From a virus: a stretch of 17,842 nucleotides of DNA. Below, one piece after another: positions 1 to 17,842 of the stretch (its first letter is position 1; every line of letters begins with the position of its first letter). The notes under the pieces were generated by a model that ran no database searches, had not been told where the DNA came from, and saw only the letters and a program-made list of their open reading frames with translations. A program made the position numbers and the translations under genes. The stretch is taken from the UHGV virus genome UHGV-1912862. One strand, 5' to 3'.

Positions 1-2400
1 GAAGCCTTCGGGAAGCTGACCACAGACCCGACGTCGGGGCTGACGGCGATGGCGCGCCAGTTCCATAACGTGACGGCGGAGCAGATTGCGTATGTTGCTC
101 AGTTGCAGCGTTCCGGCGATGAAGCCGGGGCATTGCAGGCGGCGAACGAGGCCGCAACGAAAGGGTTTGATGACCAGACCCGCCGCCTGAAAGAGAACAT
201 GGGCACGCTGGAGACCTGGGCAGACAGGACTGCGCGGGCATTCAAATCCATGTGGGATGCGGTGCTGGATATTGGTCGTCCTGATACCGCGCAGGAGATG
301 CTGATTAAGGCAGAGGCTGCGTTTAAGAAAGCAGACGACATCTGGAATCTGCGCAAGGATGATTATTTTGTTAACGATGAAGCGCGGGCGCGTTACTGGG
401 ATGACCGTGAAAAGGCCCGTCTTGCGCTTGAAGCCGCCCGAAAGAAGGCTGAGCAGCAGACTCAACAGGACAAAAATGCGCAGCAGCAGAGCGATACCGA
501 AGCGTCACGGCTGAAATATACCGAAGAGGCGCAGAAGGCTTACGAACGCCTGCAGACACCGCTGGAGAAATATACCGCCCGCCAGGAGGAACTGAATAAG
601 GCACTGAAAGACGGAAAAATCCTGCAGGCAGATTACAACACGCTGATGTCGGCGGCGAAAAAGGACTATGAAGCGACGCTGAAAAAGCCGAAGCAGTCCG
701 GCGTGAAAGTGTCTGCGGGCGATCGTCAGGAAGACAGTGCTCATGCTGCCCTGCTGACGCTTCAGGCAGAACTCCGGACACTGGAGAAGCATGCCGGAGC
801 GAATGAGAAAATCAGCCAGCAGCGCCGGGATTTGNNNNNNNNNNGCTGCAGACGCCGCTGGAGAAATATACCGCCCGTCAGGAAGAACTGAATAAGGCCC
901 TGAAAGACGGAAAAATCCTGCAGGCAGATTACAACACGCTGATGGCGGCGGCGAAAAAGGACTATGAAGCGACACTGAAAAAGCCGAAACAGTCCGGCGT
1001 GAAGGTGTCTGCAGGAGAGCGTCAGGAAGACAGTGCTCATGCCGCCCTGCTGACGCTTCAGGCAGAACTCCGGACGCTGGAGAAGCATGCCGGAGCGAAT
1101 GAGAAAATCAGCCAGCAGCGCCGGGATTTGTGGAAGGCGGAAAGTCAGTTCGCGGTACTGGAGGAGGCGGCGCAACGTCGCCAGCTGTCCGCACAGGAGA
1201 AATCCCTGCTGGCGCATAAAGATGAGACGCTGGAGTACAAACGCCAGCTGGCTGCACTTGGCGATAAGGTCACGTATCAGGAGCACCTGAACGCGCTGGC
1301 GCAGCAGGCGGATAAATTCGCACAGCAGCAACGGGCAAAACGGGCCGCCATTGATGCGAAAAGCCGGGGGCTGACTGACCGGCAGGCAGCGAAGGAAGCC
1401 ACGGAACAGCGCCTGAAGGAGGAGTATGGCGATAATCCGCTGGCGCTGAATAACGTCATGTCAGAGCAGAAAAAGACCTGGGCGGCTGAAGACCAGCTTC
1501 GCGGGAACTGGATGGCAGGCCTGAAGTCCGGCTGGAGTGAGTGGGAAGAGAGCGCCACGGANNNNNNNNNNAAAAAACCGGGGGCTGACTGACCGGCAGG
1601 CAGCGCGGGAAGCCACGGAACAGCGCCTGAAGGAACAGTATGGCGATAATTCTCTGGCGCTGAATAACGTCATGTCAGAGCAGAAAAAGACCTGGGCGGC
1701 TGAAGGCCAGCTTCGCGGGAGCTGGATGGCAGGCCTGAAGTCCGGCTGGAGTGAGTGGGAAGAGAGCGCCACGGACAGTATGTCGCAGGTAAAAAGTGCA
1801 GCCACGCAGACCTTTGATGGCATTGCACAGAATATGGCGGCGATGCTGACCGGCAGTGAGCAGAACTGGCGCAGCTTCACCCGTTCCGTGCTGTCCATGA
1901 TGACAGAAATTCTGCTTAAGCAGGCAATGGTGGGGATTGTCGGGAGTATCGGCAGCGTCATTGGCGGTGCTGCCGGTGGTGGCGCATCAGTGTCAGGCGG
2001 TACAGCCATTCAGGCCGCTGCGGCGAAATTCCATTTTGCGACCGGAGGATTTACGGGAACCGGCGGCAAATATGAGCCAGCGGGGATTGTTCACCGTGGT
2101 GAATTTGTCTTCACGAAGGAGGCAACCAGCCGGATTGGCGTAGGAAATCTTTACCGGCTGATGCGCGGCTATGCCACCGGTGGTTATGTCGGTGGCACCG
2201 GAAGTCCGGCGCAAATGCGGCGTTCAGAGGGTATCAGATTTGAGCAGAACAACAACGTGGTGATTCAGAACGACGGTACGAATGGTCTGCCAGGTCCACA
2301 GATGCTGAAGGCAGTGTATGACATGGCCCGCAAGGGTGCCCGTGATGAAATTCAGGCACAGATGCGCGATGGTGGTCTGTTCTCCGGAGGTGGACGATGA
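1..2400 (+). CDS. H: Tail tape-measure protein (lambda gpH-like), 5'-truncated by the window; frame broken by scaffold joins at 835-844 and 1562-1571
   Basis: Frame is open from nt 1. Translation is Ala/Gln/Lys-rich and coiled-coil-like with a Gly-rich segment (GGAAGGGASVSGG). Stop TGA 2398-2400 overlaps the M start (ATGA). Sits directly upstream of M-L-K-I-J. Confidence 0.9.
835..844. other. Scaffold join (10 N); 845-1130 re-reads about 549-834
   Basis: N-run followed by a near-identical copy with substitutions. Confidence 0.85.
1562..1571. other. Scaffold join (10 N); about 1574-1775 re-reads about 1360-1561
   Basis: N-run followed by a near-identical copy with substitutions. Confidence 0.85.
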
Positions 2401-2726
2401 AGACCTTCCGCTGGAAAGTGAAACCCGGTATGGATGTGGCTTCGGCCCCTTCCGTCAGGAAAGTGTGCTTTGGTGATGGCTATTCCCAGCGAGCGCCTGC
2501 CGGGCTGAATGCCGACCTGAAAACGTACAGCGTGACGCTTTCTGTTCCCCGTTGGGAGGCCACGGCGCTGGAGTCGTTTCTGGCTGAGCACGGGGGCTGG
2601 AAAGCCTTTCTGTGGACGCCGCCTTATGAGTGGCGGCAGATAAAGGTGACCTGCGCAAAATGGTCGTCGCGGGTCAGTATGCTGCGTGTTGAGTTCAGCG
2701 CAGAGTTTGAACAGGTGGTGAACTGA
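2397..2726 (+). CDS. M: Tail tip protein M (lambda gpM-like), 109 aa
   Basis: ORF MKTFRWKVKPGMDVASAP...EFEQVVN. GGAGG Shine-Dalgarno at 2383-2387. Stop overlaps L start (TGATG). Length and position match lambda M. Confidence 0.92.
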   Translation: MKTFRWKVKPGMDVASAPSVRKVCFGDGYSQRAPAGLNADLKTYSVTLSVPRWEATALESFLAEHGGWKAFLWTPPYEWRQIKVTCAKWSSRVSMLRVEFSAEFEQVVN

Positions 2727-3680
2727 TGCAGAATATCCGGCAGGAAACACTGAATGAATGCACCCGTGCGGAGCAGTCGGCCAGCGNNNNNNNNNNGATA
2801 TCCGGCAGGAAACACTGAATGAATGCACCCGTGCGGAGCAGTCGGCCAGCGTGGTGCTCTGGGAAATCGACCTGACAGAGGTCGGTGGAGAACGTTATTT
2901 TTTCTGTAATGAGCAGAACGAAAAAGGTGAGCCGGTCACCTGGCAGGGGCGACAGTATCAGCCGTATCCCATTCAGGGGAGCGGTTTTGAACTGAATGGC
3001 AAAGGCACCAGTACGCGCCCCACGCTGACGGTTTCTAACCTGTACGGTATGGTCACCGGGATGGCGGAAGATATGCAGAGTCTGGTCGGCGGAACGGTGG
3101 TCCGGCGTAAGGTTTACGCCCGTTTTCTGGATGCGGTGAACTTCGTCAACGGAAACAGTTACGCCGATCCGGAGCAGGAGGTGATCAGCCGCTGGCGCAT
3201 TGAGCAGTGCAGCGAACTGAGCGCGGTGAGTGCCTCCTTTGTACTGTCCACGCCGACGGAAACGGATGGCGCTGTTTTTCCGGGACGTATCATGCTGGCC
3301 AACACCTGCACCTGGACCTATNNNNNNNNNNCTTCGTCAACGGAAACAGCGACGCCGATCCGGAGCAGGAGGTGATCAGTCGCTGGCGCATCGAGCAGTG
3401 CAGCGAACTGAGCGCGGTCAGTGCCTCCTTTGTACTGTCCACACCGACGGAAACGGACGGCGCTGTTTTTCCGGGACGTATCATGCTGGCCAACACCTGC
3501 ACCTGGACCTATCGCGGTGACGAGTGCGGTTATAGCGGTCCGGCTGTCGCGGATGAATATGACCAGCCAACGTCCGATATCACGAAGGATAAATGCAGCA
3601 AATGCCTGAGCGGTTGTAAGTTCCGCAATAACGTCGGCAACTTTGGCGGCTTCCTTTCCATTAACAAACTTTCGCAGTAA
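2726..3680 (+). CDS. L: Tail tip protein L (lambda gpL-like); contains two scaffold joins (2787-2796, 3322-3331) with re-read blocks, true length about 232 aa
   Basis: Translation MQNIRQETLNECTRAEQSASVVLWEIDLTEVGGERYFFCNEQ... ending with a Cys cluster (RGDECGY...DKCSKCLSGCKF) as in gpL. After subtracting the re-reads the length is about 700 nt. Confidence 0.92.
2787..2796. other. Scaffold join (10 N); 2798-2851 re-reads 2733-2786
   Basis: N-run followed by a near-identical copy. Confidence 0.85.
3322..3331. other. Scaffold join (10 N); 3332-3512 re-reads 3141-3321
   Basis: N-run followed by a near-identical copy with substitutions. Confidence 0.85.
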
Positions 3681-3684
3681 TCCC

Positions 3685-4428
3685 ATGACAGAGACAGAAT
3701 CAGCGATTCTGGCGCACGCCCGGCGATGTGCGCCAGCGGAGTCGTGCGGCTTCGTGGTAAGCACGCCGGAGGGGGAAAGATATTTCCCCTGCGTGAATAT
3801 CTCCGGTGAGCCGGAGGCGTATTTCCGTATGTCGCCGGAAGACTGGCTGCAGGCAGAAATGCAGGGTGAGATTGTGGCGCTGGTCCACAGCCACCCCGGT
3901 GGTCTGCCCTGGCTGAGTGAGGCCGACCGGCGGCTGCAGGTGCAGAGTGATTTGCCGTGGTGGCTGGTCTGCCGGGGGACGATTCATAAGTTCCGCTGTG
4001 TGCCGCATCTCACCGGGCGGCGCTTTGAGCACGGTGTGACGGACTGTTACACACTGTTCCGGGATGCTTATCATCTGGCGGGGATTGAGATGCCGGACTT
4101 TCATCGTGAGGATGACTGGTGGCGTAACGGCCAGAATCTCTATCTGGATAATCTGGAGGCCACAGGGCTGTATCAGGTGCCGTTGTCATCAGCACAACCG
4201 GGCGATGTGCTGCTGTGCTGTTTTGGTTCATCGGTGCCGAATCATGCCGCCATTTACTGTGGTGATGGCGAGCTGCTGCACCATATTCCTGAACAACTGA
4301 GCAAACGAGAGAGGTACACCGACAAATGGCAGCGACGCACACACACCCTCTGGCGTCACCGGGCATGGCGCGCATCTGCCTTTACGGGGATTTACAACGA
4401 TTTGGCCGCCGCATCGACCTTCGTGTGA
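3685..4428 (+). CDS. K: Tail tip assembly protein K (JAMM/MPN plus NlpC/P60-like), 247 aa; alternative internal start at 3829 would give 199 aa
   Basis: ATG at 3685 (MTETESAILAHARR...). JAMM motif HSHPGGLPWLSEAD (HxHx7Sx2D) and downstream Cys/His consistent with NlpC/P60. Its 3' end overlaps the I start out of frame by about 100 nt. Confidence 0.9.
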   Translation: MTETESAILAHARRCAPAESCGFVVSTPEGERYFPCVNISGEPEAYFRMSPEDWLQAEMQGEIVALVHSHPGGLPWLSEADRRLQVQSDLPWWLVCRGTIHKFRCVPHLTGRRFEHGVTDCYTLFRDAYHLAGIEMPDFHREDDWWRNGQNLYLDNLEATGLYQVPLSSAQPGDVLLCCFGSSVPNHAAIYCGDGELLHHIPEQLSKRERYTDKWQRRTHTLWRHRAWRASAFTGIYNDLAAASTFV

Positions 4429-5155
4429 AAACGGGGGCTGAAGCCATCCGGGCACTGGCCACACAGCTCCCGGCGTTTCGTCAGAAACTGTGCGACGGCT
4501 GGTATCAGGTACGGATTGCCGGGCGGGACGTCAGCACGTCCGGGTTAACGGCGCAGTTACATGAGACTCTGCCTGATGGCGCTGTGATTCATATTGTTNN
4601 NNNNNNNNCGCACTGGCCACACAGCTCCCGGCGTTTCGTCAGAAACTGAGCGACGGCTGGTATCAGGTACGGATTGCCGGGCAGGATGTCAGCACGTCCG
4701 GATTAACGGCGCAGTTACATGAGACTCTGCCTGATGGCGCTGTGATTCATATTGTTCCCAGAGTCGCCGGGGCCAAGTCAGGTGGTGTATTCCAGATTGT
4801 CCTGGGAGCAGCCGCCATTGCCGGATCATTCTTTACCGCCGGAGCCACCCTTGCAGCATGGGGGGCAGCCATTGGGGCCGGTGGTATGACCGGCATCCTG
4901 TTTTCTCTCGGTGCCAGTATGGTGCTCGGTGGTGTGGCGCAGATGCTGGCACCGAAAGCCCGGACGCCCACAGCGACCAGCACGGATAACGGTAAGCAGA
5001 ACACGTATTTCTCTTCACTGGATAACATGGTTGCCCAGGGCAATGTTCTGCCTGTTCTGTACGGTGAAATGCGCGTGGGGTCACGCGTGGTTTCTCAGGA
5101 GATCAGCACGGCAGACGAAGGGGATGGTGGTCAGGTTGTGGTGATTGGTCGCTGA
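4326..5155 (+). CDS. I: Tail tip assembly protein I (lambda gpI-like); contains scaffold join 4599-4608 and a re-read, true length about 222 aa
   Basis: MAATHTHPLASPGMARICLYGDLQRFGRRIDLRVKTGAEAIRALATQLPAFRQK... followed by a Gly/Ala-rich hydrophobic C-terminal half ...GDGGQVVVIGR. Stop TGA 5153-5155. Confidence 0.9.
4599..4608. other. Scaffold join (10 N); 4609-4756 re-reads 4451-4598
   Basis: N-run followed by a near-identical copy with substitutions. Confidence 0.85.
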
Positions 5156-5173
5156 TGCAAAATGTTTTATGTG

Positions 5174-5199
5174 AAACCGCCTCCGGGCGGTTTTGTCGT
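5174..5199 (+). promoter_or_regulatory. Perfect 8-bp hairpin (AAACCGCC-tccg-GGCGGTTT) followed by a T-rich tract in the I-J intergenic spacer; possible attenuator or RNA-stability element
   Basis: Inverted repeat read directly from the sequence. A second copy with the same stem and loop tgcg lies at 6064-6089 in the re-read block. Confidence 0.35.
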
Positions 5200-5215
5200 T
5201 TATGGAGCGTGAGGA

Positions 5216-5665
5216 ATGGGTAAAGGCAGCAGTAAGGGGCATACCCCGCGCGAAGCAAAGGACAACCTGAAGTCCACGCAGCTGCTGAGTGTGATCGATG
5301 CCATCAGTGAAGGGCCGATTGAAGGTCCGGTGGATGGATTAAAAAGCGTGCTGCTGAACAGTACGCCGGTGCTGGACAGTGAGGGGAATGCCAATATATC
5401 CGGCGTCACGGTGGTGTTCCGGGCAGGTGAGCAGGAGCAGACTCCGCCGGAGGGGGTTGAATCCTCCGGTTCCGAGACGGTGCTGGGTACGGAAGTGAAA
5501 TATGACACGCCGATCACCCGCACCATCACGTCGGCAAACATCGACCGTCTGCGCTTTACCTTCGGTGTGCAGGCACTGGTGGAAACCACCTCAAAGGGGG
5601 ACAGGAATCCATCGGAAGTCCGCCTGCTGGTTCAGATACAGCGTAACGGTGGCTGGGTGACGGAA
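5216..5665 (+). CDS. J: Host-specificity protein J, 5' fragment (first allele copy, cut by scaffold join 5666-5675)
   Basis: MGKGSSKGHTPREAKDNLKSTQLLSVIDAISEGPIEGPVDGLK... is about 96 percent identical to 6106-6555. GAGG Shine-Dalgarno at 5211-5214. Confidence 0.8.
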
Positions 5666-5675
5666 NNNNNNNNNN
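5666..5675. other. Scaffold join (10 N); 5676-6555 re-reads 4786-5665 (I 3' end, I-J spacer, J 5' end)
   Basis: N-run followed by an 880-nt diverged copy at constant offset 890. Confidence 0.85.
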
Positions 5676-6045
5676 CGTATTCCAGATTGTCCTGGGAGCT
5701 GCCGCCATTGCCGGATCATTCTTTACTGCCGGAGCCACCCTTGCAGCATGGGGGGCAGCCATTGGGGCCGGTGGTATGACCGGCATCCTGTTTTCTCTCG
5801 GTGCCAGTATGGTGCTCGGTGGTGTGGCGCAGATGCTGGCACCGAAAGCCAGAACTCCCCGTACACAGATAACGGATAACGGCAAACAAAACACCTATTT
5901 CTCCTCACTGGATAACATGGTTGCCCAGGGCAATGTTCTGCCCGTTCTGTTCGGTGAAATGCGCGTGGGGTCACGTGTGGCATCTCAGGAGATCAGTACA
6001 GCTGATGAAGGTGATGGTGGTGAAATCGTGGTGATTGGTCGCTGA
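5676..6045 (+). CDS. I: Tail assembly protein I, 3' fragment (second allele copy; re-read of 4786-5155 with substitutions)
   Basis: Encodes ...APKARTPRTQITDNGKQNTYFSSLDNMVAQGNVLPVLFGEMRVGSRVASQEISTADEGDGGEIVVIGR, against TPTATSTDNG...YGEM...GQVVVIGR in copy one. Confidence 0.8.
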
Positions 6046-6105
6046 TGGAACATGTTTTATATGAAACCGCCTGCGGGCGGTTTTGTCGTTTATGGAGCAT
6101 GAGGA

Positions 6106-11127
<5,022 letters not shown>

Positions 11128-11146
11128 ATTTTATAACCCATATACG

Positions 11147-11172
11147 GGCACCAGAAATGGTGCCTTTTTTTT
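11147..11172 (+). terminator. Rho-independent terminator after J (GGCACCA-gaaa-TGGTGCC then T8)
   Basis: 7-bp GC-rich stem, GAAA tetraloop and T8 run, 20 nt after the J stop. Confidence 0.65.
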
Positions 11173-11193
11173 GCAGAAAAGCGAGAGGTAATT

Positions 11194-11730
11194 ATGCGTA
11201 AATTATGTGCTGTTATTCTGTCCACAGTAGTCTGGCTGGTCGCCGCTGGTACGCCAGCGAGCGCAGCAGAGCATCAGTCCACACTAAGCGCCGGGTATCT
11301 TCAGACCCATACTGATATGCCCGGCAACGATGACCTGAAGGGCATTAACGTGAAATACCGTTATGAATTTACGGACACGCTGGGGCTGGTGACGTCATTC
11401 AGTTATGCCAATGCCAAAGATGAGCAAAAAACGCATTACAGCGATACCCGCTGGCATGAAGATTCAGTGCGTAACCGCTGGTTCAGCATGATGGCGGGGC
11501 CGTCTGTACGCGTGAATGAATGGTTCAGTGCTTATGCGATGGCAGGTGTGGCTTACAGCCGTGTTTCGACGTTCTCCGGGGATTATCTCCGCGTAACTGA
11601 CAACAAGGGGAAAACGCACGATGTGCTGACCGGAAGTGATGACGATCGCCACAGCAACACGTCTCTGGCGTGGGGAGCTGGCGTGCAGTTTAACCCGACC
11701 GAATCCGTGGCCATTGATATTGCTTATGAA
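11194..11730 (+). CDS. lom: Lom-family outer membrane protein (Ail/OmpX/Lom beta-barrel), allele copy A, 3' end lost at scaffold join 11731-11740
   Basis: MRKLCAVILSTVVWLVAAGTPASAAEHQSTLSAGYLQTHTDMPGNDDLKGINVKYRYEFTDTLG... Signal peptide plus beta-strand pattern. GAGAGG Shine-Dalgarno at 11183-11188. Confidence 0.8.
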
Positions 11731-11740
11731 NNNNNNNNNN
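11731..11740. other. Scaffold join (10 N); 11741-12332 re-reads about 11140-11730 (terminator plus lom)
   Basis: N-run followed by a diverged copy; the lom signal-peptide region differs markedly. Confidence 0.85.
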
Positions 11741-11747
11741 CAATACG

Positions 11748-11771
11748 GGCGCCAGAAATGGCGCCTTTTTT
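11748..11771 (+). terminator. Second copy of the post-J terminator (GGCGCCA-gaaa-TGGCGCC then T6) inside the re-read block
   Basis: Same hairpin as 11147-11172 with G-C/A-T compensatory changes in the stem. Confidence 0.5.
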
Positions 11772-11795
11772 ATTGCAGAAAAGCGAGAGGTAATT

Positions 11796-12395
11796 ATGCG
11801 TAAAGTTTATGCAGCCATTTTGTCCGCAGCCATCTGTCTGGCCGTATCCGGTGCGCCTGCATGGGCATCTGAGCAGCAGGCCACACTGAGCGCAGGGTAT
11901 CTTCATGCCCGTACGAACGCTCCCGGCAGCGATAATCTGAACGGGATTAACGTGAAATACCGTTATGAGTTTACGGACACGCTGGGGCTGATTACGTCAT
12001 TCAGTTATGCCAACGCTGAAGATGAGCAAAAAACGCATTACAGCGATACCCGCTGGCATGAGGATTCCGTGCGTAACCGCTGGTTCAGCGTGATGGCGGG
12101 ACCGTCTGTGCGCGTGAATGAATGGTTCAGCGCGTATGCGATGGCGGGGGTGGCTTACAGCCGTGTTTCGACCTTCTCCGGGGATTATCTGCAGGTGACC
12201 GACAACAAGGGGAAAACGCACGATGTGCTGACCGGAAGTGATGACGGTCGCCACAGCAACACGTCTCTGGCGTGGGGGGCTGGCGTGCAGTTTAACCCGA
12301 CCGAATCCGTGGCCATTGATATTGCTTATGAAGGCTCCGGCAGTGGCGACTGGCGCACTGACGGTTTCATCGTGGGTGTCGGTTATAAATTCTGA
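11796..12395 (+). CDS. lom: Lom-family outer membrane protein, allele copy B, complete, 199 aa
   Basis: MRKVYAAILSAAICLAVSGAPAWASEQQATLSAGYLHARTNAPGSDNLNGINVKYRYEFTDTLGLITSFSYANAEDEQKTHYSDTRWHEDSVRNRWF...GFIVGVGYKF. C-terminal aromatic residue typical of OMP barrels. Confidence 0.9.
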   Translation: MRKVYAAILSAAICLAVSGAPAWASEQQATLSAGYLHARTNAPGSDNLNGINVKYRYEFTDTLGLITSFSYANAEDEQKTHYSDTRWHEDSVRNRWFSVMAGPSVRVNEWFSAYAMAGVAYSRVSTFSGDYLQVTDNKGKTHDVLTGSDDGRHSNTSLAWGAGVQFNPTESVAIDIAYEGSGSGDWRTDGFIVGVGYKF

Positions 12396-12422
12396 TTAGC
12401 CAGGTAACACAGTGTTATGACA

Positions 12423-12449
12423 GCCCGCCGGTTCAGGCGGGCTTTTTTG
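12423..12449 (+). terminator. Rho-independent terminator after lom (GCCCGCC-ggttcag-GGCGGGC then T6)
   Basis: 7-bp GC stem and T-run, directly followed by GGAG (12451-12454) and the stf ATG at 12460. Confidence 0.65.
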
Positions 12450-12459
12450 TGGAGTGGAT

Positions 12460-14817
12460 ATGGCAGCAGTAAAAATCTCAGGTGTGCTGAAAGATGGTGC
12501 GGGAAAACCAATACAGAACTGCACTATTCAACTGAAGGCAAAGCGTAACAGCACCACTGTACTGGTGAACACGGTGGCCTCTGAAAATCCGGATGAAGCC
12601 GGGCGTTACAGCATGGACGTTGAGTATGGCCAGTATAGCGTTATCCTGCTGGTTGAAGGTTTTCCGCCTTCACATGCCGGGATCATTACCGTCTATGAAG
12701 GTTCCAGACCAGGTACGCTGAATGATTTTCTCGGTGCCATGACGGAAGATGATGTCATGCCGGAGGCATTGCGTCGTTTTGAGGCAATGGTGGAAGAAGC
12801 GGCACGCAACGCCGAAGCCGCCTCTCAGAGCGCAGCGGTGGCAAAGAAATCCGAAACTGCAGCGGCATCATCGAAGAACGCGGCGAAAACCTCAGAAACG
12901 AATGCAGCTAACAGCGCACAGGCGGCAGCGTCCTCGCAGACTGCATCGGCAAACTCCGCGACAGCAGCCAAAAAATCAGAAACCAACGCGAAAAACAGCG
13001 AGACAGCCGCAAAGACGAGCGAAACCAACGCAAAGTCCAGCCAGACGGCAGCGAAGACCAGCGAAACGAATGCCAAAGCCAGTGAAACTGCGGCAAAAAA
13101 CAGCCAGGTTGCAGCAGCCCAAAGCGAGAGCGCGGCAGCCGGTTCTGCGACTTCAGCAGCTGGATCAGCAACTGCTGCGGCTAACAGCCAGAAAGCTGCG
13201 AAGACGAGTGAAACTAACGCAAAGTCCAGCCAGACGGCAGCGAAGACCAGCGAAACGAATGCCAAAGCCAGCGAAACTGCGGCGAAAAGCAGTCAGGATG
13301 CAGCAGCCGAAAGCGAGAGTGCTGCAGCTGGTTCTGCAACAGCGGCAGCTAATAGCCAAAAAGCTGCAAAAACCAGTGAAACTAACGCAAAGGCGAGCGA
13401 AACAAAAGCAGCAGCCAGCGAGACAGAAGCAACGTCAGCCGCAACAAGAGCAGAGAATGCAGCCCGGATTGCAGAAGATGCCGCTGATCCTGCTTCTGTC
13501 CCTCCGCTTCCTGATATCTGGCTACCCTTGAATGATTCTCTGGAAGCGATAACAGGGTATGCGCCGGGGTATAAAACAATAACCATCGGCAGCGATGAAA
13601 TCACTGTGCCAGTTAATGGCATATGCCAATTTAGCCGGGCTTCATCTGCAACGTATATTGATAAGTCCGGGCATATTACCGTGGCAGGTAATAACGTTCC
13701 TCGTTTTGAAAAATATGGTTTGCTGATAGAGAATCAGCGAACAAACATGTTCGTAAATAGTTTTAATCCTGATGCGTGGAATAAAAGCGGTGGTATATCT
13801 GTAACATCATCAACAGATGAATTTGAGTTTAAATATGGACGTTTCACGGTAGGAAGCGATATAGCAGGAACGACAACAGGGAGAAATATATGCACAGTTG
13901 CTGGTAACAAAGGCATAGATGTGACTGGCGATGATCAGTACAGTAAAGGTCCGTATGTTACCGCGTCGTTCAGGGTAAGAAGTGATCTCAATGTTCGCGC
14001 ACGTATCCGTTTTGAACGGTATAACTCGGAAGGATACACCTTCCTTTGCGACGCCTATTTGTCATTACAGACCCATGAACTACAAATTACTGGTGGCAAT
14101 GCCCAGCTATTAACAGCAAACTTTGAAATCGACCCTGGTAGTGGATGGATATATTTTCAGGCAACACTGAAATGTCTGCCAGAATGGGGAATGGTTGGTA
14201 CGCAGCTGCAAATTGCAGCCGACAGAGCTGTGGGAGCTTTTGCAACAGGTGACTGGATAGAAGTAACCACCCCGCAATTCGAGTATGGTGCTTGTGCAAC
14301 TTCCTTCATCATAACGACAACAGAGCCAGCGACTCGTGCATCAGATTTATGTAAATTTCCGCTGATGAAAAATATGTATACCATGCCTTTTACGTTCATG
14401 GTGGAAGTCCATAAAAACTGGTTTATTTCTCATAATGCTGCACCGCGTGTCATTGATTCAGAAAATCACCAGTCCGGAGGCCCATTTATTATGGGGTTTG
14501 GTTCTTCTGGAACTATCAGTCAGGACGGTTATTCGTATTGCGATATAGGCGGGGCTAACCGACGTGTATATGAATCATGCGGAGTAAGGGATCTCGTTAT
14601 GGGATTCAGGGTTAAGGCTGACGGCATGACATGCTCATTTGCAAATAAGCATATAAGCGCTGAAACAAAAACAGTATGGAAATATATTCGTGAAGCAGCC
14701 GTGATTCGTATCGGGGGGCAAACGACGACAGGATTACGACACCTTAATGGTCATATAAAAAACCTCCGTTTCTGGAACAGAGCATTGTCAGATACGCAGC
14801 TTAAGGAATACGTATAA
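12460..14817 (+). CDS. stf: Side tail fibre protein Stf: conserved N-terminal attachment domain, Ala/Ser/Thr-rich repeat shaft, AT-rich C-terminal receptor-binding domain with a LamG-like terminal motif
   Basis: From ATG 12460: MAAVKISGVLKDGAGKPIQNCTIQLKAKRNSTTVLVNTVASENPDEAGRYSMDVEYGQYSVIL... (lambdoid Stf N-terminus). Repeats KTSETNAK(A/S)S(E/Q)TAAK. C-terminus ...GHIKNLRFWNRALSDTQLKEYV. The ORF-track start at 12454 is GTG; I prefer ATG 12460. Confidence 0.85.
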   Translation: MAAVKISGVLKDGAGKPIQNCTIQLKAKRNSTTVLVNTVASENPDEAGRYSMDVEYGQYSVILLVEGFPPSHAGIITVYEGSRPGTLNDFLGAMTEDDVMPEALRRFEAMVEEAARNAEAASQSAAVAKKSETAAASSKNAAKTSETNAANSAQAAASSQTASANSATAAKKSETNAKNSETAAKTSETNAKSSQTAAKTSETNAKASETAAKNSQVAAAQSESAAAGSATSAAGSATAAANSQKAAKTSETNAKSSQTAAKTSETNAKASETAAKSSQDAAAESESAAAGSATAAANSQKAAKTSETNAKASETKAAASETEATSAATRAENAARIAEDAADPASVPPLPDIWLPLNDSLEAITGYAPGYKTITIGSDEITVPVNGICQFSRASSATYIDKSGHITVAGNNVPRFEKYGLLIENQRTNMFVNSFNPDAWNKSGGISVTSSTDEFEFKYGRFTVGSDIAGTTTGRNICTVAGNKGIDVTGDDQYSKGPYVTASFRVRSDLNVRARIRFERYNSEGYTFLCDAYLSLQTHELQITGGNAQLLTANFEIDPGSGWIYFQATLKCLPEWGMVGTQLQIAADRAVGAFATGDWIEVTTPQFEYGACATSFIITTTEPATRASDLCKFPLMKNMYTMPFTFMVEVHKNWFISHNAAPRVIDSENHQSGGPFIMGFGSSGTISQDGYSYCDIGGANRRVYESCGVRDLVMGFRVKADGMTCSFANKHISAETKTVWKYIREAAVIRIGGQTTTGLRHLNGHIKNLRFWNRALSDTQLKEYV
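13031..13400 (+). repeat. Imperfect in-frame tandem repeats (about 170-190 nt units) within the stf shaft
   Basis: caaagtccagccagacggcagcgaagaccagcgaaacgaatgccaaagcc recurs at 13031 and 13220. Shorter KTSETNAK motifs span about 12890-13400. Confidence 0.6.
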
Positions 14818-15086
14818 TGCGAGATATAACATTACGATTCGATAACAGAGAACAGTTTAACGCAATTGTATATGACAGTGGCCTGTTCAGTCTTGAAGAA
14901 GAAAACGGGGTTCTTGTTGATGTTATTGGCTGCATTATCGATTACGAGGAGCCAGAAAACGAAAGATGTACAGGCATTGATCGCGGTGGTTTTTTCGTAA
15001 ACATGAGGATTGTTGATAGCAGTAAAAACATATCTTCTTTAATGCCTTTCATTACGACAGATCAGCATGTAAGGACATGGGCTTAA
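14817..15086 (+). CDS. Hypothetical small acidic protein (89 aa), translationally coupled to stf (TAATG overlap)
   Basis: ATG 14817 overlaps the stf stop. AT-rich like its neighbours. No motif recognised: MRDITLRFDNREQFNAIVYDSGLFSLEEENGVLVDVIGCIIDYEEPENERC... Confidence 0.5.
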   Translation: MRDITLRFDNREQFNAIVYDSGLFSLEEENGVLVDVIGCIIDYEEPENERCTGIDRGGFFVNMRIVDSSKNISSLMPFITTDQHVRTWA

Positions 15087-15098
15087 TGGAGTAAGACA

Positions 15099-16139
15099 AT
15101 GGTTACAAAAACAGTAATTCCTGATGACATCAAAACGCTAAAATCCGATGTTAGTAAACTAAAAACTGATCAAGGAAGCTATGCAACAAAATCATATGTA
15201 GACAATAAAACAACATGGAATAGTTATTGCAATGTAATCTATGATCAAAAGGCATTGCCGACCACTGGAACTATATTTAGCGGTAAGATTCACTTGTCAA
15301 ATAAGACAGGAGAAACCGAAAACGCTTATAGTGAGATGTACACCAGAAAAAATATTGACGGTACAAAAGATACAATGACAAGGATTGTCACACACAATGG
15401 AACAAAAGGTATCTTTTGGGATTTTAGCGATCTTTACGGCGGAACATTAATTTTTCCAGGCAGTGATGGTTACCTTAAGATGGGGAACTGTCTCATGTCG
15501 TATGGTGTGCGGGGAAGTAACGCGCTTATTAAGTTTGACTGCACAGACACATTACAAATCAAATATGCCAATCATGGGTCAACCATGACATTAAACACAC
15601 AGGGGACCGCTCATTCTGGCGCTACTACTAGTTTGTGGGGTAACTCTACCCGTCCGGTTGTATATGAAGTTGGTGCTGATGGTGGCGCGTATATGTTCTA
15701 TGCGCAGAAAAATACCGATAACACCTATATGTTAAGCGTTAATGGTGCATGTCATGCCACCGCATTTAACCAGCATTCCGACCGGGATCTGAAAGACAAC
15801 ATTCAGGTGATCGATAATGCAACCGACCGCATCCGTAAAATGAACGGCTATACATACACGCTTAAAGAAAACGGTATGCCCTATGCAGGTGTCATTGCAC
15901 AGGAAGCTCTGGAAGCAATCCCAGAAGTTGTCGGTTCCGCAATGAAATATCAGGACGGTGCAAGCGGATCGGAAGGTGAAGAAGGTGAACGTTATTACAC
16001 AGTAGATTATTCTGGTGTTACTGGCTTGCTTGTTCAGGTAGCCAGAGAGTCAGACGACAGAATAACAGTACTGGAAGAAGAAAACGCAGAATTAAGGCAA
16101 AGATTATCTGCAATTGAGGCGACGCTTGCGTCTAAATAA
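15099..16139 (+). CDS. Tail fibre/tailspike-like protein with C-terminal intramolecular chaperone (peptidase S74 / endosialidase-chaperone-type) domain, 346 aa
   Basis: GGAGTAAG Shine-Dalgarno before ATG 15099. C-terminal region ...NQHSDRDLKDNIQVIDNATDRIRKMNGYTYTLKE..YAGVIAQEALEAIPEVV...LEEENAELRQRLSAIEATL carries the SDxxLK and G(V/F)IAQE hallmarks plus a terminal coiled coil. AT-rich. Confidence 0.75.
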   Translation: MVTKTVIPDDIKTLKSDVSKLKTDQGSYATKSYVDNKTTWNSYCNVIYDQKALPTTGTIFSGKIHLSNKTGETENAYSEMYTRKNIDGTKDTMTRIVTHNGTKGIFWDFSDLYGGTLIFPGSDGYLKMGNCLMSYGVRGSNALIKFDCTDTLQIKYANHGSTMTLNTQGTAHSGATTSLWGNSTRPVVYEVGADGGAYMFYAQKNTDNTYMLSVNGACHATAFNQHSDRDLKDNIQVIDNATDRIRKMNGYTYTLKENGMPYAGVIAQEALEAIPEVVGSAMKYQDGASGSEGEEGERYYTVDYSGVTGLLVQVARESDDRITVLEEENAELRQRLSAIEATLASK

Positions 16140-16180
16140 TATTAAGGGCTATGCGCCCCGTTTTATTGGGTAGGATGAAA

Positions 16181-16474
16181 ATGGATATAACACCTTTTCT
16201 TCATGCGCTTTGTGCTGTGGCTGCGCAGGTACTGGTTGGTCTTTTTACCGGAAACTGGGCTTACGGGGCGATAGCCGGTTGTACATTCTTCATTGCGCGG
16301 GAACACACCCAGGCAGAATATCGCTGGATTGAAATGTTCGGGCATTGCAAGCGGATTAACATGCCGTGGTGGGGCGGTTTTGATCCGCGTGTTTGGGATG
16401 TGGCAAGCCTGATAGATTTTGCTGTGCCGGTGGTGGCGTGTCTGCTGGTCTGGCTGTTGGTTAATCGTGGGTGA
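16181..16474 (+). CDS. Small polytopic inner-membrane protein (about 97 aa, three hydrophobic segments), function unknown
   Basis: AGGA at 16172-16175 then ATG 16181 (the ORF track begins at 16151). Hydrophobic stretches FLHALCAVAAQVLVGLFTG, AYGAIAGCTFFIA, LIDFAVPVVACLLVWLLV. G+C is host-like, unlike the upstream cassette. Confidence 0.5.
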   Translation: MDITPFLHALCAVAAQVLVGLFTGNWAYGAIAGCTFFIAREHTQAEYRWIEMFGHCKRINMPWWGGFDPRVWDVASLIDFAVPVVACLLVWLLVNRG

Positions 16475-16484
16475 AAAAAGGTGA

Positions 16485-16604
16485 GCTGTATATGCAACGG
16501 AGGAAGAAATCTCGTTGCTGGAAGCATGGAAAAAGTATCGGGTATTGCTGAACCGTGTTGATACGTCAACTGCACAGGATATTGAATGGCCAGCACTGCC
16601 GTAG
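16485..16604 (+). pseudogene. tfa: 3' remnant of a tail fibre assembly gene (tfa); only the last ~40 codons remain
   Basis: Frame-3 translation [39 protein letters not shown]-stop matches the conserved Tfa C-terminus (..[33 protein letters not shown]..). An in-frame stop lies at 16482-16484 and there is no start codon. Confidence 0.7.
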
Positions 16605-16701
16605 GGTAAAACATATAAATTCTATAATTAGATGTATCTTTCCATTTACGGCAAGGAAGGGGGCTTGGAAGACGTAAAGCATCTCACACCGAGATTATTT
16701 T

Positions 16702-17292
16702 TTATATGTCAGGTGTCTGAAGTTTTGCTTTGGCTCTTAAAATGGTTTGCCGCGAGGTTTTGAATTCCCGGGCAATGGCACTTATACTTACACCTGACTT
16801 AATTCGTTCGAATACCACCTGTTTCTGTTCTTCATTTAACACAGGTGGTCGACCAAAACGTTTCCCTGCGCCGCGGGCTCTTACTATCCCGGAATGAGTG
16901 CGTTCAAGTAAAAGGTCTCGTTCAAATTCAGCGACTGCTGAAATTACTTGCATCATCATTTTTCCTGTTGGACTGGTCAGGTCAATGCCCCCCAATGCTA
17001 AGCAATGCACTCTGATACCTGTTTCGGTCAGTTGTTCCACTGTTTTCCTGATATCCATTGCATTACAACCAAGGCGATCCAGTTTTGTCACAATCAATTG
17101 ATCACCACATTTCAGGCGAGCAAGCAACCGGTTAAAACCAGGACGCTCACTGGTTGCTGCTGAGCCGCTAATGTGTTCTTCGATTATTTGCTGAGATTTG
17201 ATGTTAAAACCTGCACTTTCGATTTCCCGGCGTTGATTTTCGGTGGTCTGATCCAGCGTTGATATCCGACAGTAAGCAAAAATTCGAGACAT
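16702..17292 (-). CDS. pin: Serine recombinase of the DNA-invertase family (Pin/Gin/Hin-like), 196 aa
   Basis: [20 protein letters not shown]... has the resolvase/invertase N-terminal catalytic motif (Ser11) and a C-terminal HTH ([21 protein letters not shown]). Position after stf/tfa and length 196 aa match the PinR/PinQ arrangement of Rac/Qin prophages as I recall it. Confidence 0.88.
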
Positions 17293-17608
17293 AGTGAGAC
17301 TCTATACGAAATTGGTGTTCATATCATAATGCATCTCAGAAAATAATTATGATTATTTTTGTGCATATTTGTATGTACACGTTCGAAAATAAACGAATGC
17401 GTATGCAACCCCGTAATTTTGGTGAGACCCAAAATCGATTTTGTGAAAAATGGCTTTAACTCGGTTTGTTTTTCGAGTTCCGGGAGGACTCAAGGAAGAA
17501 GAATAGTGTTGCGTGTTATTTTAACCAGATTTCAAGTTGTTTGGTCGTGGAAAAGTGGAGCAAAATGTTGTTAAAGTGGAAAAATGATAAAAAAGTAAGT
17601 TTATTATA

Positions 17609-17842
17609 TTACATTTTACCATTTAAATTTTGGTTGTCTTTAAGAACTGATATCGCTGTTTGTAATAATTCTTTGTTATCCAGCCATGATTTTTTCTTTA
17701 TGTTTCCTTCAATGTAATCAAGCAATGTTCTGGTATTGATAGGTCTTCCCTGTTTTGCTACTTCCACTACAGCATCCCCTAGGATAATTCTTACTTCAGG
17801 AAGCTGCGCAGGGAACCACTTTAGGGTGTCTTTTGATTTCAT
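17609..17842 (-). CDS. Small protein (77 aa), YdfK/YnaE-like by synteny with pin
   Basis: Complete ORF MKSKDTLKWFPAQLPEVRIILGDAVVEVAKQGRPINTRTLLDYIEG...; the start codon coincides with the window edge. AT-rich. The identity rests on recalled Rac/Qin gene order (pin next to ynaE/ydfK), not on a search. Confidence 0.5.
   Translation of the reverse strand: MKSKDTLKWFPAQLPEVRIILGDAVVEVAKQGRPINTRTLLDYIEGNIKKKSWLDNKELLQTAISVLKDNQNLNGKM

Follow-up and report, generated by a model that had tools for sequence, protein, structure and literature searches.

Gene organization of the side tail fibre locus

The window, as we call the whole 17,842-nucleotide stretch analysed here, belongs to the virus genome UHGV-1912862, and the present study deals with its side tail fibre locus, which is of lambda-like type and occupies the region of about 13.5-16.6 kb. 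The locus carries, all on the plus strand, the side tail fibre gene stf (12454/12460-14817), a gene for an accessory protein of 89 amino acids (aa) (14817-15086), a gene for a distal tail fibre of 346 aa with an S74 domain (15099-16139), a gene for a predicted membrane protein of 97 aa (16181-16474) and a 3' fossil of the tail fibre assembly gene tfa (16493..16604). The low-G+C part, positions 13560-16140, is called the cassette below. The stretch 12400-17300 is 100% identical to a prophage adjoining prfC in the finished chromosome of Escherichia coli MS20659 (NZ_CP082073). RefSeq gives the gene order there as gpJ, lom, "prophage tail fiber N-terminal domain-containing protein", a hypothetical protein, "tail fiber domain-containing protein", a second hypothetical protein, a partial tail fiber assembly pseudogene, a recombinase and ydfK. 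An assembly artefact as the cause of this arrangement was ruled out, because the cassette lies inside a single N-free piece (11741-17842) and is matched at 100% by a finished chromosome.

The stf gene is placed after J and lom in a lambda-like tail operon, an order taken from the identical RefSeq prophage, and RefSeq starts it at the ATG at 12460. Its 5' part (12460..13500, plus strand, G+C 0.52-0.56) encodes a lambdoid anchor at aa 5-134 (PF08400, E=6e-66, 220.9 bits with a cut-off of 26.6) and an Ala/Ser/Thr-rich repeat shaft at aa 135-345, which includes a 189-bp tandem duplication (12994-13337, 1.8 copies, 90% match). The family profile of Stf matches the N-terminus of the Ur-lambda tail fibre (9e7m, E=3e-23), and the protein belongs over its full length to PHROG family 1419. 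This 5' part is conserved lambdoid backbone and stands outside the swapped module. Several RefSeq genomes list this stf as two pieces in the area of the shaft repeat, possibly due to assembly or frameshift problems. The gap between lom and stf holds a strong terminator-like hairpin (12422-12443), with an 8-bp stem containing 7 G-C pairs and a following T-run, and the phage 21 record has a terminator annotated in the equivalent gap between J and stf. The hairpin suggests that stf expression might depend on read-through or antitermination.

The 3' part of stf (13501..14817, plus strand, aa ~350-787) encodes a lectin-like C-terminal module, referred to as Stf-C. It consists of a conserved linker PLPDxW (PLPDIW here), a beta-sandwich at aa ~435-613 and a conserved terminal region; within the family the sandwich is more variable (0.64-0.73) than its flanks (0.80-0.94). 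The NCBIfam model NF048003 (GTA_spike_fiber) matches aa 424-629 with 47.9 bits (cut-off 36), and the family profile of Stf-C matches the head spike fibre of the gene transfer agent RcGTA (6tb9) at E=4.5e-10. When aa 341-787 were modelled by AlphaFold2 (AF2) from an alignment of 20 sequences, the model was confident for aa 435-613 only and formed a beta-sandwich there, of which the Foldseek neighbours were Pseudomonas phage tail fibres, a Klebsiella capsule tailspike and CBM6/22/4 modules. The last 40 residues show a weak ConA/LamG-like signature (PF13385, Laminin_G_3, E=5e-4, sub-threshold). Elsewhere the Stf-C module is fused to the N-termini of P2-type fibres and to the lateral fibres that virulent siphophages carry. 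BLASTP detected no similarity between aa 346-787 and the distal part of StfR of the Rac prophage. A canonical Stf-Tfa pair has a T4 gp37-like distal Stf and an intact tfa downstream, and neither is present in the window.

The gene for the 89-aa protein overlaps the stf stop with its start by 1 bp and stands between the proximal and the distal fibre gene. The protein is a full-length member of phrog_1361 (E=1e-30); no match to Pfam, NCBIfam or PADLOC was obtained at E<=0.01, and at E<=10 there were only Pfam matches far below threshold. Homologues at the same position, with overlaps of 1-4 bp, occur in phage 21, Tritos, IrisVonRoten, VogelGryff, XY3 and AKFV33. The family is present in four siphophage lineages, always between the genes of the proximal and distal lateral fibre, and copies were located at 4501-4779, 4501-4776, 3629-3907 and 4721-4999 in the compared loci L007, L008, L011 and L005, respectively. 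Phage 21 keeps the ORF of about 90 aa without a distal S74 fibre gene. Detection of the family needed a profile of three sequences, since a word-indexed protein search with the 89-aa ORF alone returned 4 fragments only. The AF2 model shows an alpha/beta fold, whose structural neighbours are uncharacterised phage proteins and were uninformative. We also considered the 89-aa ORF as a Tfa homologue and rejected it, with an hhalign probability of 0.2% against TfaR.

The 346-aa protein belongs to phrog_4563 over its full length (E=5e-208) and can be divided into an N-terminal peptide (aa 1-15), a T5-like receptor-binding region and an S74 chaperone beginning at Ser227 (PF13884 at aa 227-278, E=6e-14, 52.5 bits, cut-off 22). 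S74 fibres such as endoNF and T5 pb1 have a catalytic Ser at the cleavage site and a Lys five residues downstream. The S74 domain of the 346-aa protein opens with SDRDLK (S227-D-R-D-L-K232), in which Lys232 is five residues past Ser227, and the protein probably matures through self-cleavage at Ser227. At the other end, nine positions (M1, T3, T5, I7, P8, D10, I11, L14 and K15) are invariant in five proteins, from the window, Tritos, MS14384, IrisVonRoten (Gp24) and VogelGryff. The corresponding peptide MxTxTxIPxDIxxLK recurs in Drexlerviridae, Queuovirinae, T5-like and lambdoid phages.

The 97-aa protein is hydrophobic at about aa 1-40 and 73-96 in the hydropathy profile, and belongs to phrog_1443 over its full length (E=1e-57). 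It has 93% aa identity with its homologue in phage 21, which is labelled there as a putative membrane protein with two transmembrane domains, and 94% with that of Tritos, although divergence is much greater in the adjoining fibre genes. No Pfam, NCBIfam or PADLOC match was found for it at E<=0.01, and only far-sub-threshold Pfam matches at E<=10. PADLOC gave no defence-system match for any protein of the cassette. The 97-aa protein could be a moron or an exclusion factor.

Breakpoints and tfa fossil

A sequence-only reading of the same stretch had proposed that the usual Stf C-terminus and Tfa were exchanged for a foreign module of three genes, leaving a tfa remnant of about 40 codons. The comparison with Rac (NC_000913) bears out the replacement and gives the breakpoints as they had been guessed. 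Similarity with Rac covers lom and the first ~360 bp of stf, the identity with stfR being 90% at DNA level as far as 12812; it is then lost inside stf and is resumed inside tfa at 16493. From there the stretch 16493-16640, which spans the final 112 bp of tfaR and some sequence beyond, matches Rac at 100%, and the whole flank 16493-17842 has 99.6% identity, running through pinR and ynaE. The tfa fossil (16493..16604, plus strand) thus has 112 bp, that is 36 codons and a stop, and shows where the ancestral replacement ended on the right; RefSeq lists it as an incomplete pseudogene for a tail fiber assembly protein. Relative to Rac, about 155 codons of tfa and the canonical distal part of Stf are missing.

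Among 5426 complete E. coli genomes, the junction between the 97-aa ORF and the tfa fossil was covered to >=80% in 1326. Phage 21, Tritos and three further E. coli prophages have exactly the same junction. The left DNA boundary varies among the relatives, and homology to stf of Tritos stops at 13610. Because the right junction is common to phage 21, Tritos and so many genomes, the replacement is an old event that was inherited and spread, and it is not peculiar to this prophage. A cassette beside an intact tfa had been set beforehand as the test against replacement. None was met among the examples examined, which all had the tfa fossil or no tfa, so the replacement reading stands.

A related prophage, that of E. 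coli KC-Dl-1 (positions 6236-7874 of the compared locus L010), carries two sets of tail-fibre genes one after the other. Beyond its tfa fossil come another short fibre gene of PF08400 type (345 aa) and a gene for a DUF4376 protein, and of the distal S74 gene only a remnant is left.

Base composition

The G+C content is 0.566 at 1-13568 and 0.422 at 13569-16139, and the maximum-likelihood single change point is 13569. It is in agreement with the sharp fall from about 13,560, continuing through the 89-aa and 346-aa ORFs, that had been described by hand counting, and the five 100-nt samples counted then were confirmed (0.65, 0.47, 0.35, 0.32 and 0.55 when computed). In windows of 300 nt the mean is 0.566 upstream (standard deviation 0.039, minimum 0.467) and 0.422 in the cassette (standard deviation 0.037, maximum 0.47, minimum 0.347), and nearly all upstream windows exceed all cassette windows. 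Third codon positions give the same picture: their G+C (GC3) is 0.37 in Stf-C, 0.36 in the 89-aa ORF, and 0.36 and 0.39 in the two halves of the S74 gene, whereas lom, the tail genes and the 5' part of stf have 0.47-0.62. The return of G+C to about 55% at 16201-16300 was found as claimed (0.55), but the recovery is confined to the 97-aa ORF (16181-16474, about 0.53), and the right end is AT-rich again, with 0.424 over 16140-17842 as a whole.

In Rac, the distal half of stfR (0.485) and tfaR (0.481) are also below the proximal half of stfR (0.55-0.58). Therefore the G+C fall at the distal end of stf is general and merely deeper here. This leads to an explanation in which nothing foreign is needed: the low G+C would come from amino-acid or structural constraint, or from an AT bias that fast-evolving receptor-binding genes generally have, and the module would be an old lambdoid resident. 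The difference of 7-10 points within Rac, the similar composition of the module in phage 21 (0.44) and Tritos (0.445), and the AT-rich right end as a whole agree with it. We consider it unlikely, though it is the best placed of the three alternatives weighed here, because the drop is strongest at synonymous third positions (0.36-0.39), homologous loci lie in phages whose local G+C is 0.40-0.43, and the interposed 97-aa ORF keeps 0.53, so that neighbouring genes retain different compositions.

The lateral-fibre loci of IrisVonRoten (0.40) and VogelGryff (0.43) are near the cassette in G+C content. As these loci have 40-43% G+C, a gene pool shared with AT-richer virulent siphophages plausibly explains both the low G+C and the low GC3 of the cassette. 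The claim of a foreign module is thus upheld in one part, by composition and by the virulent siphophages that are its closest non-lambdoid relatives; it does not hold in the sense of a recent or prophage-specific acquisition.

Relationship with fibre loci of other phages

The core trio of proximal fibre, protein of about 90 aa and distal S74 fibre occurs in Markadamsvirinae, Queuovirinae, Drexlerviridae and lambdoid phages. It is homologous to the lateral-fibre loci of IrisVonRoten (T5-like), VogelGryff (Seuratvirus) and XY3 (T1-like, Drexlerviridae), and Stf has 38% identity with the lateral fibre of VogelGryff. A similarity between a T5-like fibre gene and the side tail fibre gene of E. coli prophages was already remarked for AKFV33 in 2012 (PMC3326045).

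The closest described parallel is IrisVonRoten (Tequintavirus, Bas32), which has the gene order Gp22, Gp23, Gp24 and the same overlapping start of the small ORF (Maffei 2021, PMC8594841; Humolli 2025, PMC11990801). Gp22 has 45% identity with Stf over aa 133-787, including the lectin-like end and reaching the C-terminus, and Gp23 has 33% with the 89-aa ORF. Gp24 has 70% identity with the 346-aa protein over the first 17 residues, and 25% over the T5-like receptor-binding region (receptor-binding domain 2, RBD2) and the intramolecular chaperone (IMC), aligned at aa 264-571 of Gp24. The two loci differ in that IrisVonRoten has a T5-type, LtfC-dependent anchor instead of the lambdoid PF08400 anchor, and is without the 97-aa membrane ORF, tfa fossil and pin. 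Gp24 is also larger, a T-shaped protein of 574 aa, and has a further, Gp12-like receptor-binding domain for which the 346-aa protein has no counterpart. In a published AlphaFold-Multimer model, distal Gp24, with its T5-like receptor-binding domain and IMC, is attached to proximal Gp22, and a galectin-like domain at the C-terminus of Gp22 was proposed as an additional receptor-binding domain (PMC11990801). The primary receptor of IrisVonRoten is the O16 O-antigen (PMC11990801, PMC8594841).

Among lambdoid phages, phage 21 (OL657228) shares the lambdoid backbone, the Stf architecture (46%), an ORF of about 92 aa (32%), the membrane protein and the tfa junction, but is without the distal S74 fibre gene. 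Tritos, a prophage of LF82 (OV696610), has the five-gene layout, pin included (Stf 66%, small ORF 33%, S74 fibre 79%, with the membrane protein and tfa junction as in phage 21). The Stf-C and small-ORF alleles of both phages are strongly diverged from those of the window, and for this reason the receptor specificity probably differs from that of phage 21 and Tritos.

The T5-like phages DT57C and DT571/2, compared here by published description, have branched lateral fibres of LtfA and LtfB, in which LtfB has no virion anchor of its own and is attached via LtfA, and in which each protein can recognise a different O-antigen (PMC4728585, PMC10713586). The window resembles them in a two-protein lateral fibre with S74-type C-terminal chaperone domains. 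It differs in that LtfA of DT57C ends not in a lectin-like region but in a conserved domain that it shares with LtfB, taken as the S74 IMC, and the published locus description of DT57C mentions LtfA and LtfB only.

The Stf-Tfa pair of Ur-lambda and Rac (StfR-TfaR) is matched with the window in the N-terminal anchor, the repeat shaft and the position after J and lom, and Rac in addition in the right flank, with the tfa 3' end, pinR and ynaE/ydfK. The distal half of Stf is unrelated, the extra genes of the window are absent from Rac and lambda, and only 36 codons of tfa remain in the window. For Stf-C alone, a homologous domain of about 250 residues is found in Rcc01080 of RcGTA (PDB 6TB9, NF048003), which differs in standing on the capsid of an alphaproteobacterial gene transfer agent and in having unrelated surrounding domains. 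The RcGTA head spike fibre binds capsular polysaccharide (PMC10218006).

Distribution and mosaicism in E. coli

The exact cassette (13560-16140) was covered to >=80% in 86 of the 5426 genomes, and some part of it was matched in 733, where most of the sampled matches were to the S74 gene only; the 4.9-kb stretch 12400-17300 was covered to >=80% in 66. The cassette also occurs in the plaque-forming phages PhiR11_1, PhiR47_1 and PhiR55_1 at 92-98% identity. Phage 21, Tritos and PhiR11_1 share a layout of stf, an ORF of about 90 aa, an optional S74 fibre, the 97-aa membrane ORF and the tfa fossil. A literature search on the PhiR phages and on the fibre function of Tritos gave nothing specific.

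Two units are exchangeable in E. coli, namely Stf-C with the 89-aa ORF, and the S74 gene. The boundaries between these sub-modules fall at 15080-15142, a segment made up of the intergenic spacer and codons 1-15 of the S74 gene. The description as a three-gene module has to be corrected: there are four genes, since the 97-aa membrane ORF travels along, and the unit is itself mosaic with an optional S74 gene. The view that the gene content is unusual was not sustained either, given the frequency of the junction, the 86 genomes with the exact set and the same layout in phage 21 and Tritos. The module is a common, previously sequenced and partly described alternative, not a novel rearrangement.

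These counts also decide on the explanation that this prophage acquired, recently and as an unusual event, a foreign receptor-binding cassette of three genes in place of the Stf C-terminus and Tfa. The sharp drop of G+C and GC3 at 13569, the tfa fossil, and cassette proteins without similarity to Rac StfR or TfaR are all what such an event would leave. A recent event is hardly compatible with a junction common to phage 21, Tritos, other prophages and 1326 genomes, with a left boundary that differs among relatives (13610 against Tritos), with a 100% identical RefSeq chromosome and 66 genomes covering the 4.9-kb stretch, or with a fourth gene in a unit whose four genes are all established full-length PHROG families. 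We regard it as largely refuted by the prevalence and the shared junction, and as very improbable.

A second explanation is that the cassette is inert debris of a defective prophage, with ORFs open by chance or by recency of decay and with no functional fibre. A pseudogenised tfa adjoins it, the same stf is annotated as split or partial in several RefSeq genomes and in one is interrupted by an IS3 insertion, and the stretch is a scaffold. On the other side, the four ORFs are intact in the window and also in MS20659, where they are accompanied by a complete annotated set of head and tail genes. The catalytic Ser/Lys motif is kept as well. The same gene set is present at 94% DNA identity in PhiR11_1, which is recorded as propagated on K-12, and the module is found also in Tritos and phage 21. 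Debris is therefore improbable, if slightly less so than a recent acquisition.

A proposed two-part side tail fibre

Taking these results together, we consider, with a probability of about 0.75, that the region 13.5-16.6 kb holds, in intact form, a side (lateral) tail-fibre module of the phage 21/Tritos type, which is a common alternative in lambda-like phages and would make a two-part fibre. From the homology with Gp22 (45%), with Gp23 (33%) and with the N-terminal peptide and RBD2/IMC of Gp24, we infer that the window encodes a fibre of the IrisVonRoten kind on a lambdoid anchor. A changed receptor specificity, which the sequence-only reading had put as a change of host range, is a reasonable expectation.

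In such a fibre, Stf trimers would attach to the tail tip via the lambdoid N-terminus, and the lectin-like beta-sandwich of Stf would provide one binding site for a surface glycan, O-antigen or capsule. The 346-aa protein would trimerise with the help of its own C-terminal chaperone and then cleave itself at Ser227. By its conserved N-terminal peptide it may dock on the conserved end of Stf, thus adding a second, exchangeable receptor-binding tip. Tfa would be dispensable, since neither fibre end is of the Tfa-dependent type of T4 gp37 and lambda Stf. As for the history of the locus, the module may have come into a lambdoid stf-tfa-pin locus a single time in the distant past, replacing the sequence between one breakpoint in stf and another in tfa, and may then have spread among lambdoid phages through homologous recombination in the conserved flanks, with sub-modules swapped at the 5' end of the distal-fibre gene.

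Several points weigh against this interpretation. The docking of the 346-aa protein on Stf is deduced from a conserved N-terminus and from the published AlphaFold-Multimer model of a system with 25-45% identity. The AF2 model of Stf-C is poor overall, with a mean predicted local distance difference test score (pLDDT) of 51 and the last 170 residues unmodelled, and the Foldseek E-values for the beta-sandwich are marginal (4e-4 and worse). As the model is poor outside aa 435-613, the terminal domain of Stf is not classifiable by fold, and the term "galectin/ConA-like" for it comes from the sub-threshold Pfam match and the literature. Composition does not tell which way the genes passed between virulent and temperate phages, and the integrity of this particular prophage cannot be judged, the stretch being a scaffold of overlapping pieces. 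A chaperone role of the ~90-aa protein is conjecture, and its role as a pure adaptor is argued against by phage 21, which has the protein without the distal fibre.

For this ~90-aa protein, the most likely role is to help in assembling the Stf C-terminal module or to form part of a joint there, which we call a guess. More specifically, and only as a tentative proposal, it could be an undescribed dedicated joint or assembly factor that either folds the lectin-like end of Stf in place of Tfa or forms the socket for the distal MxTxTxIPxDIxxLK peptide. A weaker addition to this proposal is that the co-travelling 97-aa protein might modify or mask the cognate receptor in lysogens.

Flanking genes and structure of the stretch

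Downstream of the tfa fossil, a Pin-family serine DNA invertase is encoded on the minus strand (16702..17292; PF00239, PF02796, phrog_125; 99.6% to the pinR region of Rac). It belongs to the Rac/Qin flank, outside the module. No match to the e14 pix repeat was found in the stretch with up to 3 mismatches allowed, and the flanking inverted repeats were short and imperfect, none of them convincing. The tfa fossil occurs in a single orientation and there is no second stf/tfa set in the stretch. A Pin-controlled invertible segment was accordingly rejected for want of a pix-like site and a convincing inverted repeat, and Pin is here an orphan invertase, which is also its state in Rac. Action in trans on the P segment of e14 has been reported for PinQ and PinR (PMC12529663).

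The window is a scaffold with 12 runs of exactly ten N (835-844, 1562-1571, 2787-2796, 3322-3331, 4599-4608, 5666-5675, 7651-7660, 8115-8124, 8679-8688, 9731-9740, 10484-10493 and 11731-11740), and the pieces flanking them overlap in reference coordinates. The fibre region is wholly within the last piece. J domains were detected within the stretch. The split look of gpJ (8171-10507 and 10504-11127, near 10484-10507) is a scaffold artefact, and so is the doubled look of lom (11194-11793 and 11796-12395), which is no gene duplication.

Significance

The exchange of tail-fibre modules is textbook knowledge. The module carries little weight as a discovery: phage 21, a classical phage, has it, as do characterised temperate phages and roughly one in four complete E. 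coli genomes, and a structural model has already been published for the homologue in IrisVonRoten. For annotation it means that "Stf without Tfa" in lambdoid prophages should not be taken as a defective fibre locus. The N-terminal peptide of the distal fibre and the tfa fossil are natural exchange points, usable for retargeting lambda-based particles. The ~90-aa and 97-aa proteins are the conserved unknowns left in the module, and both are cheap to test. If the ~90-aa protein is indeed a joint or assembly factor, the trio would be a plug-and-play receptor-binding system common to temperate lambdoid phages and to virulent T5-, T1- and Seurat-like phages.

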